Positions 6,233-25,742 of a stretch of DNA of 64,000 bases are shown piece by piece. The position numbers were made by a program, and so were the translations under genes. Origin of the DNA: an uncultured delta proteobacterium (GTDB lineage Bacteria > Myxococcota > Myxococcia > Myxococcales > Myxococcaceae); NCBI GenBank assembly GCA_963771175.1, contig CAVYSY010000051.1, positions 64,001-128,000 on the forward strand, given 5' to 3'. Under the pieces are notes generated by a model, which was given only the letters and a program-made list of their open reading frames with translations, did no database searches and was not told the origin of the DNA. Position 1 is the first letter of the stretch, and each line of letters opens with the position of its first letter.

Positions 6233-6610
6233 ATGAAGGTGTTGATAGTCGAAGACACGAAGACCATCACCAACCTCATCCAGGTGTACCTGATGGGGTG
6301 GGGCCTGGAGTTCTTCGAGGCGAGCAATGGCGTGCAGGGGCTCGCGCGTGCCCGGGAGATCAAGCCGGATCTGGTCATCTCCGACGTGCAGATGCCGGAG
6401 ATGGACGGGTTCGCGCTGTGCGCGGCGGTGCGGGCGGATCCCATCCTCTTCGCCACGCCCGTCGTGATGCTGACCTCGCTCAAGGACGACTCGAGCCGGC
6501 AGCGCGGACGGCTGGTGGGGGCGAGCGCCTTTCTCAACAAGCCCGTGGCGGTGGATGATCTGCGCGAGAAGGTGCGCAGCATCCTGAAGCTCCCCGCCAG
6601 CAAGTACTAG
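6233..6610 (+). CDS. cheY: Single-domain response regulator (CheY-like)
   Basis: VLIVED, SDVQMPEMDG, VVMLT, KP receiver motifs; inside the che operon. Confidence 0.88.
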   Translation: MKVLIVEDTKTITNLIQVYLMGWGLEFFEASNGVQGLARAREIKPDLVISDVQMPEMDGFALCAAVRADPILFATPVVMLTSLKDDSSRQRGRLVGASAFLNKPVAVDDLREKVRSILKLPASKY

Positions 6611-18930: not shown

Positions 18931-19359
18931 TGTCCCCCTGGCAGTCGAGCCAAAGGGACATCAGGAGCGCACGCTCATGATGAAGCGACCATTCGTCGCC
19001 AGGGGGCGTATGCGGAACGGACCCCGGACGAGCAGGTCTTCCTCTATGCCACCGAATACGAGGACGACGTCCTGACCCACAAGAAGATCGAGGAAGGTGA
19101 CGTCGTTCTCTTCGTCACGCTCCCCAGGTTGGCGGAGGGGAGACTCCGCGCTGGGGGAAAGCGCTCCACCGCGCAGGTCGCCGTCTGGCGCTTCTCGGAG
19201 TCTTCGCCCCGTGATGGTTCTGACTGGCGCCAGAGTGATGGCACCGTGGAGGTGGTGATGCTCTCTCGGACGAAGGTCCACCTCCGGGTGGACGCGAAGT
19301 TCCCAGGCGGTGGGTCCGTCTCTGGCGAGCTCGTCGCGCCAATTCGCGGCGAGGATTGA
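18931..19359 (+). pseudogene. Startless open frame, probable 5'-truncated gene remnant
   Basis: Open for 142 sense codons with host-like GC3 usage (EQVFLYATEYEDDVLTHKKIEEG...); no ATG near its 5' end. Confidence 0.35.
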
Positions 19360-19418
19360 CTCAGGCGCAGTGGAGGGCGGTGCCGCGCGGTACGGGCGCT
19401 GTTGCAGTCCCATCAGAT

Positions 19419-21059
19419 TCAGCGGGCTCCCAGACGGTGGAGCAGAATCGTCCTCAGATAGTCGCGAGTACGTATCGCCTCGTCCTGATAGTTCCTGCCC
19501 TGTGTGCGTTCTCCGTGGACGATTTCGCACCTGCTTTCGTAGGACTCCCTCACCGCCCGCTGCAGGTTGTCGGCGGGTCCCACCCCAAGAGTCGCCAGCT
19601 CCTTGCTGATTCTCTCCGCGCACTTCGTGGTGAGAGAGCCCTCTCCTCGGCGCGTGAAGAGCCCCTCGAGTGCTACCCAGCAGTCTATCAGCCAGTCTTT
19701 TGGAGAGCCTCGGCGGCAGGACGAGAACCAGCGACGCAGGGCGATGGTCAGGCCTCCGTCCTGCGAGGCTCCTGCCTGACCTGTCTCAGCGGAGAAAAGA
19801 TCGTAGATTCGCGGAACCAATGCCTGCAAACGTTTGGCGTCATCAACGCTCAACGAGACATGGCCAGGCATGAATGCTCTATTGAAAGAGGCCCCGCCGA
19901 TGCGGGTCCTGAATCCCTCCCGGAGCGATCCTTCCCGGAGTTTCTCCGCGAAAGTGGGCTCGATGATGTATCCGATGGATGGCTCGCCCATGAGCAGGTT
20001 GAGAGCTACCAGCGCCACAAATTCTGGGAGTTCCAGCTTCAGCTCGTCATGCAGGTCCCTCTCCCACATGATGGTCTGAAAGCCCGGCTCTTCATATTCG
20101 AGCACACTCCGAAGACCAAGGACATCGAGCCCACGCAGCGGTATTTCATTGCACAGCGGGTCCGGGTTGAGCCAACGGTCGAGCTCCATCGCCGACACAG
20201 CCCTCAGCTTGAGGCGCGGCAGGAGTTCCAAAGCGGGGCCATTCAGCCACAGCTTGAGCAGGGGCGTCAGGCGGTATTGGCATTGCCGCCCACGCGCGAT
20301 GCGCTGCTTCAGTCGGATGAACAGGTAGTGCGCCACCCGCTCATCCAAGTTCAGTACCTGGGGGGCGAGCCATAGATAATCGCGGACGTACTCGCCAACA
20401 AAGCCATTCCACGCCCTCACGCGCATCTCGGCGAGGTTCGCGGGTGGATGTGCTTCATCTTCTGTTATGAGGAGACAGTTCCACTCTGGAGGCGCCTTCG
20501 ACATCAGCAGGGCCAGCGGATCCAGCGAGCGCAGTTGCTCTTCCTGGTTGTTTCTCACGAAAAGCTCAAACAGGTGTCGCGCATCATGGCACTGCATTGT
20601 CAAGATGCTGGGGCCACCGCTAGGCGAGACGCCAATCACCTCATTCCTCGACAGGACCTCTGATTGCCGTAGCCAGGCGCGCAAAAGCCGCTGCTCCTCG
20701 TCCAGGGCGTGCTCCTCCAATGAAGGCGAGAACAGACTGCCATCGGCCAGCCGCTTATGAAGCGGCTTCGGACCATGGGTCAGGAAGAAGTGGCATACCT
20801 CCCGGATGACGTTCTGGAGCGCTCCCTCCAGTTGCTCCAGGGGCGTTCCGGTCAAGGGCTTGGCCGTGAGGTGGCGAAGGTTCCAGAGTCCCTCTCCAAG
20901 AAGTCTTCCGAACAGCATCTTGCACTCCTCATGGAACATTGGCGGCGATTGTAGCCGGACGCGGGCGTTTGCTCCGGAAACATGGAGGAATGAGGAAGAG
21001 GAAGGGGCCGACAAGGATTGAACGAGATGGACATGTGGAAGATGTAGTCCCGTTCGCAT
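19419..21059 (-). CDS. Protein with C-terminal HEPN domain (Apea-like), predicted RNase
   Basis: C-terminal CWVALEGLF...YESRCEIVHG with R-x4-H at 19515-19532; strong SD (GGAGGAGGGAGG) before ATG 21059; visibly more AT-rich than flanks. Confidence 0.7.
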   Translation of the reverse strand: MRTGLHLPHVHLVQSLSAPSSSSFLHVSGANARVRLQSPPMFHEECKMLFGRLLGEGLWNLRHLTAKPLTGTPLEQLEGALQNVIREVCHFFLTHGPKPLHKRLADGSLFSPSLEEHALDEEQRLLRAWLRQSEVLSRNEVIGVSPSGGPSILTMQCHDARHLFELFVRNNQEEQLRSLDPLALLMSKAPPEWNCLLITEDEAHPPANLAEMRVRAWNGFVGEYVRDYLWLAPQVLNLDERVAHYLFIRLKQRIARGRQCQYRLTPLLKLWLNGPALELLPRLKLRAVSAMELDRWLNPDPLCNEIPLRGLDVLGLRSVLEYEEPGFQTIMWERDLHDELKLELPEFVALVALNLLMGEPSIGYIIEPTFAEKLREGSLREGFRTRIGGASFNRAFMPGHVSLSVDDAKRLQALVPRIYDLFSAETGQAGASQDGGLTIALRRWFSSCRRGSPKDWLIDCWVALEGLFTRRGEGSLTTKCAERISKELATLGVGPADNLQRAVRESYESRCEIVHGERTQGRNYQDEAIRTRDYLRTILLHRLGAR

Positions 21060-21074
21060 TCGGCCTCCCTCCTC

Positions 21075-21146
21075 CGCCGAGAGCCGGCAAGGAGTGAGTG
21101 AGACGGACAGTTGGAATGTAGTCACACTCGCATCCGGCCCCCGGCG
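21075..21146 (-). ncRNA. Candidate Y RNA-like structured RNA between TROVE and HEPN genes
   Basis: Minus strand: 13-bp closing stem CGCCGGGGGCCGG/CCGGCUCUCGGCG (2 G-U), internal loop AUGC/ACUCCUUG, upper stem GAGUGUGAC/GUCUCACUC; 4 nt after the Ro60-like stop. Confidence 0.55.
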
Positions 21147-21150
21147 TTCC

Positions 21151-22707
21151 TCAAAGCTCGGTGCTCTCGATGGACTCCACCCACCGGCGGGCATCCAACC
21201 CGCCATTGGCGAAGTCCGACATCAGCTCGAACACCACATCCGAAAAACCTCCCACGTTGAAGATGTCCTCTCGCTCCGGTGCCTGGGTCGTCCCGTACGG
21301 CTGGAGATCGATGCACACCAGCCGCGCGCGCGGGTTGCGGCGCCGGAAGAGCTCCCACTGTCGCAGCGTCTCCGTCCCCACTCCCGCCCGCGCATCCACC
21401 CAGGACTCGTTGTCCGACACGAACACCACCAGCTCCCCCTTCGCGTGGCGCGCGTTCAGCCACGCCAGTGGCGCGCTGCAGTTCGTCCCGCCCCCTCCCA
21501 CCGACGCCATTCGCTGGGCGTTGGCCATGATGCTGTCGCGCACCGGGAGCGTCAGCGGCACCACGTCATGATCGAACGGCACCACCTGCGCGCCCGGGTT
21601 GCGTCGCAACATGGCCGCCGCCAGGAGCGCGGCCACGTCCACGCAGCGCACCGCCGTCGTCGCCCCCTCGCGATGCCCCGTCACCGGCGACTGCATGGAG
21701 CCCGAGACGTCCACGCAGACGTAGGCCCGGCCCTCCACTCGCGGCACGTTCTCGATGGCCACCTCCATGGCCGCCTGCAACGCGTCACGCACCCGGGCAG
21801 GCACCTCGCGACCCACCGCGCGCCACGCCGCCAGGAGCTGGTACGGGAACACCCGCGCCCGCCGCACCTCCGCCGGATCCGCCAGCCGCCGGGCGATCCG
21901 CTTCTCCATCCCCGGCTCGTTGAAAACGCCGTGCCGGGCGAAGGTGTTGAGGTTCATCCGCGTCATGTGCCAGGAGGCCTCCTGGGCGATGTGCACCCAC
22001 GCCTCCGTCTTCAGGGGCAGGGAAGTGAGGAGCTGGAAGGGCACCTCCGGCACCTCACGCGAGGTGGGGCGGGCCTTGAAGTCCTCGTAGTGGGCCACCA
22101 GCTCCGGCAGCGCCTCGCGCGCGTGGGGCCGACCCAGCAGGTAGCCATAGAAGGATTCACGTCGAGCCGTCTTCGGCTTGGGGTGCACCATGTGGATGAT
22201 GTCCGCCAGCGAGGGGGACTGGCCCACCGACTCACGAAAGAGCGTGTCCTCGTCGCGCGCGTCCAGCCACTCGCACACCAGCCGCTTGGGGAGGCTCCCC
22301 AGCGAGCGGCGGGCCACGAGCCCCGAGCGCATGATCTGCACGAAGGTGCGCAGCATGCGGCCGGTGTCGATGACGCGCGGGAAGACGCGCGGCAGCAGCT
22401 CGGGTCCGAGCACCGAGAGCACCGCGCACAGCAGCGCCGGGGTGTCCTTCATGTACCCGCGCTGGCGGCAGTACAGGGCCGTGCGAGCCACGAACTCCGG
22501 CTCCACCTGGCCACTCAGCGCGAGAAGCTGGTCGAGCTGCACCTCGGCCGCGGCATAGAAGGTGCCGTTGAGGCAGCCGGTGGCGGCGTACTGGGCCAGC
22601 GCGTGCCGGGGCGTGAAGGCAAAGGCAGGGGCGCCCTCCTCGTTGAGGGCATCGGGCGGGGGCAGTACCGGGCCGCGAGTGGTCTGGAAGAGGGACAGGT
22701 TCGCCAT
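21151..22707 (-). CDS. rsr: TROVE domain RNA-binding protein (Ro60/Rsr ortholog) with C-terminal vWA
   Basis: NEEGAPAF, TGCLNGTFY, RMNLNTFARHGVF, ARVFPYQL, vWA DVSGSM, GGGGTNCSAPL, VSDNESW, IDLQPY, VGGFSD. Confidence 0.88.
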   Translation of the reverse strand: MANLSLFQTTRGPVLPPPDALNEEGAPAFAFTPRHALAQYAATGCLNGTFYAAAEVQLDQLLALSGQVEPEFVARTALYCRQRGYMKDTPALLCAVLSVLGPELLPRVFPRVIDTGRMLRTFVQIMRSGLVARRSLGSLPKRLVCEWLDARDEDTLFRESVGQSPSLADIIHMVHPKPKTARRESFYGYLLGRPHAREALPELVAHYEDFKARPTSREVPEVPFQLLTSLPLKTEAWVHIAQEASWHMTRMNLNTFARHGVFNEPGMEKRIARRLADPAEVRRARVFPYQLLAAWRAVGREVPARVRDALQAAMEVAIENVPRVEGRAYVCVDVSGSMQSPVTGHREGATTAVRCVDVAALLAAAMLRRNPGAQVVPFDHDVVPLTLPVRDSIMANAQRMASVGGGGTNCSAPLAWLNARHAKGELVVFVSDNESWVDARAGVGTETLRQWELFRRRNPRARLVCIDLQPYGTTQAPEREDIFNVGGFSDVVFELMSDFANGGLDARRWVESIESTEL

Positions 22708-22719
22708 GCCCCTGCCTTG

Positions 22720-22735
22720 AGCATCCGGCGTGCCA
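22720..22735 (-). promoter_or_regulatory. sigma54 (-24/-12) promoter of the TROVE gene
   Basis: Minus strand TGGCAC-GCCGG-ATGCT, close to the TGGCAC-N5-TTGC consensus with exact GG/GC spacing. Confidence 0.65.
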
Positions 22736-22822
22736 TTCCGTCCGCCAGGGTGCCACCCAGCGCAAACCCGCGTCTTTCCAGGGACTTCCCCGGCCTGGCT
22801 CGGGAGCAGGCTCCTGGAGGCC

Positions 22823-22838
22823 TTATTCATCAGGATAA
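22823..22838. promoter_or_regulatory. Candidate enhancer (UAS) for a sigma54 activator
   Basis: AT-rich imperfect palindrome TTATTC-N4-GGATAA ~90-105 bp upstream of the -24 element. Confidence 0.4.
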
Positions 22839-22895
22839 AGTCTTAGCCTTGGGAATAGGAACGGCCACCGGAAGGCAGGGACGAGCCTGAGCGCA

Positions 22896-22939
22896 CTGGC
22901 GTAGGGGAGGGCGGTGGGGGGCGCCTGCCCCCACGCCAG
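22896..22939 (-). terminator. Hairpin downstream of the ATP-grasp gene
   Basis: Minus strand CTGGCGTGGGGG...CCCCTACGCCAG stem ~20 nt after the stop. Confidence 0.45.
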
Positions 22940-22958
22940 GAGCAGGCCAGGACGTGGA

Positions 22959-23834
22959 TTACCGCTCCACGCCCAGCAATGCCGCGAACAGCTCTCGGGG
23001 ATCGATGCTTGGGGGAATCCCGGAGACACCGCCATCGTTCACCTCGACCACGGCCCAACGGCCGTCTTCGAGCATCGCGACATCCATGGTGAAGAAGCGC
23101 GCGTCGATTCTGCGTGCGAGTCGCTCGAAGGCGGAGAAATCCGGTACGTCGACATCGAAGTCATCGGAGGACTCCGCCGCCAGGAGCCGCCCGTGCCCGA
23201 AGAACAGCCGGAATTCGAGGTGCGCGGGCCCGGTCCGCGTCCGTCCCCGGACCTTGAATGGCAGGATCCGCCTGACGACGAACCCACGCTCGAAGCGCTC
23301 TCCTCGCTCCTCGAGCAGCGCGCCGCAGATGCGCTCGAAGTCCTGTCGCGAGGCTCCGGCCGGAACGAAGCACGCCTCGGCCCAACGCTCCTTCGCCGAC
23401 TTCACGTGGTCCTTCACGAGCCATGGCGGCGAGCCGAGCGCTTGAGCGGCATGCCACGCCTCCGACGGGTCCGTGCCCTCGGTCCAGACGGAGCGTGCGG
23501 TGTACCCCTTCAGCTGCGGGTACCAGTTCGGCAGGTAGTGGGCCGCCGAGTACTGCGCGGGGGTGGTCATCAGCTCGTGGCTAAGCGCCCCGAGCGCCTC
23601 GTCCAGCGCCTCGTACTCTTCGCCCGTGAGCATCCACCCCCGGTACAGCAGCCGGAGGTGGCCCTGTTCGGGAATGGCGGCGCACGCGCGTTCCGCATCG
23701 CCCTCCAACAGGGCGGCCAGATCGATCTGGAAGGTATCTATTCCCAGCGCTTCGGCCGCATCCGCCTCCGTATCGAATGAATCGGACTGATGCGGATTCC
23801 GGCCAAACAGGATGGACGAAGCCAGCGGCATCAT
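22959..23834 (-). CDS. ATP-grasp domain protein (R2K-like)
   Basis: LYRGWML, HYLPNWY, VKDHVKSAK, EFRLFF, FFTMDVA, VVEVNDGGVSG (ExN metal motif). Confidence 0.75.
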   Translation of the reverse strand: MMPLASSILFGRNPHQSDSFDTEADAAEALGIDTFQIDLAALLEGDAERACAAIPEQGHLRLLYRGWMLTGEEYEALDEALGALSHELMTTPAQYSAAHYLPNWYPQLKGYTARSVWTEGTDPSEAWHAAQALGSPPWLVKDHVKSAKERWAEACFVPAGASRQDFERICGALLEERGERFERGFVVRRILPFKVRGRTRTGPAHLEFRLFFGHGRLLAAESSDDFDVDVPDFSAFERLARRIDARFFTMDVAMLEDGRWAVVEVNDGGVSGIPPSIDPRELFAALLGVER

Positions 23835-24729: not shown

Positions 24730-25742
24730 ATGCTCGTTCGGTCTTCACTGGTGGCAGGTCTGCTCGCGGGAGCGCTCGTCGCTTTCGCCCCACAGGCCCA
24801 TGCCGCCTGCTCGTACTTCGCCGCGCTGGATCGCGATGTCACCCAGCCCTCACAGCGCGCACTCATCACCTGGGATCCAGAGACGAAGTCCGAGTCCTTC
24901 ACCGTGCAGCCCGTCTTCCAGGGCAATGCCGAGGACTTCGGCATGGTCATCCCCACGCCCGCCCAGCCCAAGCTGAAGGAGGCCCCTCGCGACATCTTCA
25001 AGGACCTGGCGCTCTACACCGTGCTCGAGCCCAGGCCCTGTACGCGTCCCATGAAGAAGTACTCCAGCGCCTTCCCGTCCGCGGCTCGAGAGGCCCCGGT
25101 GATGAAGAAGAGCACGGTGCGGGTGCTGGAGGCGGGCGTGGTCGGCTCGCTCGACTACAAGATCATCACCGCGGAGAAGGCCTCGGACCTGTTCGAGTGG
25201 CTGAAGGAGAACAAGTACAGCTACTCCGGCGACGAGGCGACGCTCGACTTCTACGTGAAGAAGAAGTGGTTCTTCACCGTGATGAAGATCGACACCAAGC
25301 AGATGAAGCATGACCCGACGGCACCTTCGCCGGCGAGGTGACGCCCACGCGCTTCCAGTTCACCAGCGAGAAGCTCGTCTACCCGCTGAAGATCACCCCG
25401 TTGAGCGTGAAGGACAAGACCGAGGCGCTCTTCTACGTGCAGGCCCCTCGGAAGATCGCCTTGCCCCAGTCGAAGCTGGAGTACGCGAAGCGGCTGAAGG
25501 GAGCGGACCTCGACAAGCTGGACAAGGGCCTGGTGCCCATCCCCCAGTCCTCGCAGACCATGGGGGAGGCTCAGCAACACGACTTCAAGGGGCTGAAGGG
25601 ATGGCTGAAGAAGGGCGAGTACCTCACGAAGGTGCGGCGCGTCTTCCGCAAGGAGGAGATGACCGATGATCTCGAGCTGGCCTTCGCCAACGACAACGAG
25701 GAGTACACCTCGTACGAGGACTGCGGCGGAGTTCCCCCGTGA
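24730..25742 (+). CDS. DUF2330 domain secreted protein; apparent frameshift at ~25315-25340
   Basis: Signal peptide AHA; FQGNAEDFGMVIPTP, WLKENKY, YVKKKWFFTVMK, then PTRFQFTSEKLVYPLKIT in the next frame. Confidence 0.65.

Follow-up and report, generated by a model that had tools for sequence, protein, structure and literature searches.

Two tandem hairpins directly downstream of rsr in a myxobacterial genome are probably short Y RNAs without a tRNA-like module

Bacterial Y RNAs are the obligate RNA partners of Ro60/Rsr. Among them, a wide distribution has been traced, to our knowledge, for the tRNA-like YrlA class only, and Chen and co-workers reportedly described 'long hairpin' Y RNAs (YrlB, Yrn2) in 2013. 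In the 64,000-nucleotide stretch of myxobacterial DNA analysed here (the window), a hairpin lies on the minus strand immediately after rsr and ahead of another gene on the same strand, which raises the question whether it is a Y RNA of the Rsr protein, a regulatory element of the neighbouring gene, an end structure of the rsr mRNA or a mere repeat. Here we argue, at a probability of about 0.85, that it is a short Y RNA of the hairpin-only class, followed in tandem by a paralogous Y RNA gene, and that both are located directly 3' of rsr.

The first hairpin (copy 1; 21075..21146, minus strand) is 72 nt long and starts 4 nt past the rsr stop codon. Folding with RNAfold reproduced the structure that an earlier note on this DNA had described, namely a 13-bp closing stem with two G-U pairs, an internal loop of the AUGC / UCCUUG type, an interrupted upper stem and an apical loop, which comprises 7 nt (UUCCAAC). 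The predicted free energy was -37.3 kcal/mol (z -5.36), and none of 200 shuffled sequences was equally stable. The same note had argued for strandedness from the G-U pairs, and indeed the opposite (plus) strand of copy 1 folded less stably (-32.6 kcal/mol, z -4.04), with two additional interior mismatches at the G-U sites. The conserved boxes of copy 1 are CCGGAUGC, GACUACAU, GUCUC and CUUGCCGG. The first of these is a compensated variant of GNCGAAN0-1G, a motif common to YrlA and YrlB and likely to be involved in Rsr recognition (Chen et al. 2014, PMC4201824). Copy 1 reads GCCGGAUG and departs from the motif at one position, where an A-U pair has become G-C with a compensating C on the 3' strand.

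Copy 1 is followed, with a 0-nt spacer, by a tandem paralogue that is absent from the earlier note (copy 2; 20998..21074, minus strand). With its full basal stem, copy 2 folded at -36.1 kcal/mol (z -4.54); the extended stem is needed, as the 68-nt core alone gave a modest fold (z -2.3, 9 of 200 shuffles as good). The basal stem has 14 bp and one bulge, its 5' strand being GAGGAGGGAGGCCGA, and within it GGAGGAGGGAGG base-pairs with CCUUCCUCUUCC. The boxes of copy 2 are GCCGAAUG, which conforms to the strict motif GNCGAAN0-1G, GACUACAU, AUCUC and CUUGUCGG, and the apical loop is CUUCCAC. Alignment of the two copies gave 81% column identity with compensatory differences: copy 1 has GAGUG/CACUC in its upper stem where copy 2 has GAACG/CGUUC, and the last closing pair is G-C in the former and A-U in the latter. 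Both hairpins were kept when the 246-nt context was folded as a whole. The sequence 3' of copy 2, CCUUCCUCUUCCUC, is a short pyrimidine tail without a U-tract.

The gene preceding the hairpins (21151..22830, minus strand) is rsr, encoding a Ro60 orthologue with TROVE and vWA domains by Pfam and NCBIfam. Its product matched the Pfam families vWA_Ro60 (2.2e-18) and TROVE (6.8e-8), and the NCBIfam Rsr model at 5.3e-26 with 91 bits, the equivalog cut-off of 900 not being reached. The start codon is uncertain. The open reading frame begins at ATG 22830, but in distant homologues the alignable part starts at Met42 (22707), and among 80 rsr loci (the best 80 of 148 confirmed) the match sets in at about residue 42 in most cases. 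Rsr was sporadic in the lineage, being present in 3 of the 61 genomes searched, the window's own counted. The two closest loci belong to an Archangium MAG (L010/L020, 88% Rsr identity) and to Cystobacter fuscus Cbf 10 (L021, 90%). Both loci have kept both hairpins at the same place relative to rsr, orthologues of copy 1 included, and the window's stem GGCCGA/UCGGCC has changed in compensatory fashion to GAUCGA/UCGAUC in L010/L020. Comparison by blastn delimited a conserved cassette (20984..22858, minus strand), which consists of rsr, Y RNA 1, Y RNA 2 and the short pyrimidine tail: the window matched L021 from 22858 to 20984 at 90.4% and L020 from 22774 to 20993 at 89.6%, with no match past these ends. 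Thus rsr, two hairpins and the pyrimidine tail form the sole stretch common to all three, amid unrelated flanks. An ATP-grasp protein of R2K clade family 3 (22959-23834, minus strand; Pfam 4.4e-36) is encoded directly upstream of rsr in the window, and was not found at any of 81 other rsr loci. A scan of neighbouring ORFs revealed no rtcBA genes.

The next gene on the minus strand (19419..20918) lies outside the Y RNA unit and encodes a 499-aa protein (P0001) from ATG 20918, with GAGGAG 6 nt upstream of it. This start lies 232 nt past the rsr stop codon and about 80 nt past copy 2. Scans with Pfam, NCBIfam and loose Pfam settings assigned the 499-aa protein to no family. Its homologues (38-47% identity, 387-494 aa) include some that their sources name HEPN or Apea-like HEPN, and it carries a C-terminal RCEIVHG (Rx4H) motif; because of these names and this motif it is probably an Apea-like HEPN protein. 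The G+C content is 57-60% over this gene (window 19400-21000) as against about 70% in rsr, which, taken with flanks unrelated to those of L020 and L021, suggests a separate acquisition of the HEPN gene and the rsr cassette.

The position of copy 1, between rsr and the HEPN gene and on their strand, invites the explanation that the hairpin, with or without bound Rsr, occludes the HEPN ribosome-binding site and so acts as a cis regulator. The earlier note had offered such a cis Ro60-binding element controlling HEPN translation as one of its possibilities, on the basis of a rsr-HEPN spacer of 91 nt, and a purine-rich GGAGGAGGGAGG with an in-frame AUG (21059) does come after copy 1. Closer inspection of these signals tells against it. 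The product on record begins at 20918, about 80 nt beyond copy 2, so that the spacer measures 232 nt rather than 91 nt, and homologues have 387-494 aa. The supposed Shine-Dalgarno sequence GGAGGAGGGAGG (stretch GAGGAGGGAGG) is contained in the 5' strand of the basal stem of copy 2, where it pairs with CCUUCCUCUUCC, and the supposed start AUG 21059 falls inside copy 2's AUGC box, a box that an alignment of 64 sequences shows to be invariant (see below). By tblastn, the HEPN protein was found at 0 of 81 other rsr loci, and these include the two closest relatives, L020 and L021, which retain both hairpins and carry unrelated DNA from about window position 20984 onwards. Since among the three myxobacterial genomes only rsr and the two hairpins are conserved while the flanks differ, cis regulation of HEPN has very little left to recommend it. 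The hairpins belong to rsr and not to HEPN, because the shared homology ends at the cassette and neither the HEPN nor the ATP-grasp protein accompanies any of the 81 other rsr loci. For annotation, this means that the HEPN gene loses an erroneous N-terminal extension and an erroneous ribosome-binding site.

If the hairpins are Y RNAs of Rsr, as we favour, similar elements are to be expected at other rsr loci. The comparison set comprised the best 80 of 148 confirmed rsr loci, with 50-90% identity to the window's Rsr. A short covariance model (R1), based on 7 short hairpins and comprising 20 pairs, was run over the window and 81 rsr loci (544,591 nt, both strands, E<=1). It returned 110 matches, all of them 3' of rsr; 109 were on the rsr strand, and the exception was the reverse complement of one true match. 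Because R1 under-detects YrlA-type RNAs (it missed the one at L011, 1888-2015), a long model (R2) was built from 14 YrlA-type sequences and used at E<=0.01, and all of its 260 matches in the window and the rsr loci were on the rsr strand. Copy 1 scored 86.2 bits with R1 and 45.0 bits with R2, copy 2 scored 76.0 and 42.1 bits, and across the whole 64-kb window R2 found the two short copies only.

Matches of the two models were merged for those 75 loci whose 3' flank spans at least 600 nt, counting elements of 92 nt or less as short; L027, L049, L057, L050, L078 and L088 were excluded, the rsr end being truncated or unresolved. In these 75 loci, drawn from the best 80 of 148 by Rsr similarity with near-duplicates included and hence not independent counts, at least one element lay just 3' of rsr on the rsr strand in 75/75, at least one short element in 60/75, spread over several phyla, and at least one long element with the T-loop motif in 71/75; the number of elements per locus had a median of 4 and a maximum of 8. 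The earlier note had proposed a covariance model built from 3' flanks of TROVE genes, and the homologues that such a model should find are thus present at every locus tallied. The linkage to rsr is exclusive, and it is strict in strand and position. The first element after rsr was short in 48 of the 77 loci with matches (again from the best 80 of 148). Only 4 of the 75 loci had short elements alone: L020 and L021, which represent the window's clade, L022, and L040, where the flank spans only 825 nt. Taken together, the tallies suggest that a short hairpin-only Y RNA with invariant boxes of its own is common beside rsr across phyla, and that in this Rsr subfamily rsr is as a rule followed by an array of 2-8 Y RNAs. 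Arrays mixing YrlA-type RNAs and short hairpins were seen after rsr at L043 (4134-5679), L042 (4205-5314), L051 (2201-4231) and L069 (4091-5089).

We then examined 64 short matches for covariation in a structure-blind MAFFT alignment. AUGC is invariant in it, GACUACAU and UUGUCG are invariant or nearly so, and the stems vary; the conserved boxes of the short class are accordingly CGAAUGC, GACUACAU and UUGUCG. RNAalifold predicted 13 pairs, and compensatory double changes were seen in 13/13 of these, as well as in 9/9 pairs of the closing helix. Relatedness among the 64 sequences inflates the covariation numbers, which were 92.9% of cells paired against 69.0% in shuffles, and 187 cells changed on both sides against 49; 0 of 500 shuffles reached any of the five observed measures. 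When the partners were slid by 1-3 columns as a control, 35-57% of cells remained paired, and individual pairs were realised by up to six pair types. In the smaller R1 set, double changes occurred in 9 of 20 pairs among 7 sequences. In spite of relatedness, a conserved RNA structure is the only reasonable interpretation of the slid controls and of the variety of pair types. The covarying homologues whose absence downstream of other TROVE genes the earlier note would have counted against a Y RNA therefore exist. The strict motif GNCGAAN0-1G was found in 35 of 88 short matches and AUGC in 86 of 88.

Two adjacent similar copies in a G+C-rich genome could also be a REP-like or mobile-element repeat, or a chance palindrome of the G+C-rich intergenic region. 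We consider this so improbable as to be negligible. In the window's own assembly (9.8 Mb, 58 contigs, 81.7% complete), BLAST with the 153-nt pair found the pair itself only, the next best match being 27 nt with E 0.375, and R1 over the same genome gave 2 matches, both at this locus; the many dispersed copies that the earlier note had named as telling against its proposal are thus missing from this assembly by BLAST and by covariance model. A repeat is also difficult to reconcile with the strict linkage to rsr across phyla in strand and position, and a chance palindrome with the fact that 0 of 200 shuffles of copy 1 folded as well.

A more serious alternative, which we nevertheless regard as improbable, is that the hairpins merely structure the 3' end of the rsr mRNA, as a factor-dependent terminator or an exonuclease barrier, and give no trans-acting RNA product. 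They come directly after the stop codon, they are very stable, and no other terminator-like site was detected in 20700-23100 (0 found, 0.9 expected). RNA-library contigs of relatives stop near the 3' end of copy 2, contig ends being no guide to true RNA ends. A barrier, however, needs a stable stem only, whereas here the unpaired AUGC, UACAU and CUUG are invariant or nearly invariant across phyla and the stems covary; the same module holds a tRNA-like insert in the neighbouring YrlA-type RNAs, and some loci carry arrays of up to 8 such units. A U-tract is absent, so that a typical intrinsic terminator is unlikely, as the earlier note had remarked. A stabilising side effect on rsr mRNA would be compatible with the Y RNA explanation.

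Transcription signals and RNA data for the region were also searched. A scan of 20700-23100 for sigma-70 and terminator consensus sequences found nothing, which has to be read with the reservation that myxobacterial promoters may not fit the consensus. The sigma-54 promoter pattern gave 6 matches in the window against 3.8 expected, a number that 18 of 100 shuffles reached; the match at 22721-22735, inside or at the edge of rsr, is at chance level and was discarded. No RNA run of the source organism itself was found among sequencing runs, the best DNA run containing half of the sampled words, and three soil or biocrust metatranscriptome runs contained 4-6% of them. Contigs from relatives (85-95% alike) in these metatranscriptomes join the 3' end of rsr to one or both hairpins (X20, 21009-21274; X18, 21064-21232). 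With a depth of 2.7-4.5, without information on ends, strand or level, and possibly derived from library DNA, these contigs give a weak hint that the rsr 3' end and the hairpins are transcribed in relatives.

As to the kind of RNA, an Rfam scan of 19000-23500 of the type proposed in the earlier note gave a mixed answer. Copy 2 aligned over its full length with YrlB (RF02565), at 22.8 bits and E 0.35, well below the gathering score of 97, whereas copy 1 had no Y RNA family match at E<=10; YrlA (RF02553) had no match in this region, and the metazoan Y_RNA (RF00019) none at E<=10. A match of mir-289 over copy 1 (19.1 bits, E 2.9) is at chance level, as are the other Rfam matches in 19000-23500. 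The L010 orthologue of copy 2 scored higher with YrlB (33.3 bits, E 8e-4), as did L067 (39.9 bits, E 1e-4). At ten loci cross-checked with Rfam, YrlA matched at E<=1e-6 in 10/10, confirming the long elements as YrlA, while the YrlB model matched a short element at E<=0.01 at only 1/10. The proposal of a minimal Y RNA without the tRNA-like module thus gains support from the synteny with rsr, the family-wide boxes, the covariation, and the sub-threshold YrlB matches of copy 2 and its L010 orthologue.

The known RNAs that the window's hairpins resemble most in their presumed working, and to which they are most probably homologous, are the short Y RNAs of the YrlB type. Like these, they are about 70-80 nt long, lie beside rsr on the same strand, and form a long stem from their 5' and 3' ends, with a GNCGAAN0-1G / AUGC box on the 5' strand, UUGUCG on the 3' strand, a small pyrimidine-rich apical loop and no tRNA-like domain. 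Chen et al. (2014, PMC4201824) place bacterial Y RNAs within 4 kb of rsr on the same strand and list as 'long hairpin' Y RNAs the YrlB of Salmonella Typhimurium, the YrlB of M. smegmatis and Yrn2 of D. radiodurans. In Salmonella the order is rsr-yrlB-yrlA (PMC7790460; bioRxiv 10.1101/312249). The same order of rsr, short hairpin and YrlA-type RNA occurs at L011 (55% Rsr identity), where the last of these has T- and D-arm sequences and scores 65.1 bits with RF02553 against a gathering score of 69. The differences from Salmonella YrlB are equally clear. Scores with RF02565 stay far under its gathering score (22.8-39.9 bits vs 97); the window has two tandem short copies and no YrlA partner; and the text of Chen et al. 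(2014, PMC4201824) gives BLAST orthologues of YrlB for S. enterica only, whereas the short class occurs at 60/75 loci of several phyla (from the best 80 of 148).

With YrlA (RF02553), the window's copies have in common, in our alignments, the basal module predicted to bind Rsr and an upper stem of the form GGGACUACAU...GUCUC, and R2, which was built from YrlA-type sequences, matches them at 45.0 and 42.1 bits. In contrast to YrlA, they have a 7-nt loop in place of the T-arm, D-arm and acceptor-like insert. Metazoan Y RNA genes are transcribed by Pol III from a promoter of their own; the window's element is instead embedded in the 3' region of rsr. By analogy, it would share with the metazoan RNAs (RF00019) a terminal stem with a conserved protein-binding helix and association with Ro60. 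The metazoan GGUCCGA has been noted to resemble the bacterial GNCGAA motif (Chen et al. 2014, PMC4201824).

The window's clade differs from the pattern of one tRNA-like plus one hairpin Y RNA. In none of three genomes searched, the window's own, the complete 11.9-Mb C. fuscus genome and the Archangium assembly, did an RF02553 match exceed the cut-off. The best RF02553 matches that were checked (L012, L013, L014, L101, L103) are tandem tRNA genes and were rejected as YrlA; this is the class of false positives against which Chen et al. (2014, PMC4201824) warn. The clade is therefore unusual in being without a detectable tRNA-like YrlA, compared with 71/75 loci that have one (from the best 80 of 148), and these results suggest that in a culturable myxobacterial lineage rsr is accompanied by two short Y RNAs but by no detectable tRNA mimic. 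In the searchable supplement tables of Chen et al. (2014, PMC4201824), Sorangium is listed, and Cystobacter, Archangium and Myxococcus are not. Going beyond what we found in print are the wide occurrence of the short class, which Rfam does not capture, and a lineage without YrlA.

By analogy with characterised Y RNAs, we infer how the hairpins may be made and used. Co-transcription of rsr and both hairpins as one RNA appears likely because only 4 nt separate the stop codon from copy 1 and 0 nt the two copies, leaving no room for a promoter, and because 20700-23100 holds no consensus promoter or terminator. The two hairpins of about 72-77 nt would then be set free, or cut back as far as the base of each long terminal stem. 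Each would bind the outer surface of the Rsr ring through its basal helix and internal loop (CGrAUGC opposite CUUGyCG), which would be the bacterial counterpart of the metazoan Ro-binding helix GGUCCGA / UUGAC. The bound Y RNA might thereby be stabilised itself and might gate or tether Rsr, the GACUACAU box and the pyrimidine-rich apical loop being the likely contact for a partner.

A wider interpretation is possible, which we put forward tentatively and with more doubt than confidence. The short hairpins may constitute a distinct, ancient and uncatalogued Y RNA subfamily, the long-sought wider YrlB family, marked by the boxes CGAAUGC, GACUACAU and UUGUCG, usually in first position after rsr, and distributed across Myxococcota, Acidobacteriota, Planctomycetota, Verrucomicrobiota and others. 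On the same interpretation, the rsr cassette of Archangium/Cystobacter would have dispensed with YrlA; this compact 1.9-kb cassette, apparently moved horizontally, would rely on a duplicated pair of minimal Y RNAs. If so, Rsr would work without the tRNA-like effector module, and its Y RNAs would only gate the cavity or recruit a partner via GACUACAU and the pyrimidine loop. Moreover, since the hairpins would be part of the rsr transcript, Rsr might bind the 3' end of its own mRNA and autoregulate. The locus thus offers a natural system for studying the role of the short class and the need of the tRNA-like module for Rsr function.

Some minor observations were made at the loci under comparison. 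In the window, the overlapping adjacent ORFs 24730-25341 and 25338-25742 on the plus strand (24730-25742) match the Pfam DUF2330 profile at positions 2-174 and 181-278, respectively, and may represent a split or frameshifted gene. At L033, an Acidobacteriota MAG, ten Rfam tRNA matches lie upstream of rsr on the rsr strand (517-2408). At L067, a SECIS_3 match (6486-6544; 67.6 bits, gathering score 63) lies about 2.4 kb downstream of rsr. The box variant CCGGAUGC of copy 1, in which G replaces the A of GNCGAA, recurs in the first short Y RNA of L036, L087, L080 and L025, that is, in some Planctomycetota and at one other MAG locus, with the variant G pairing to C (L036, L087, L080) or to U (L025). 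Because of this recurrence, the variant may represent an old subtype rather than a change peculiar to this locus.
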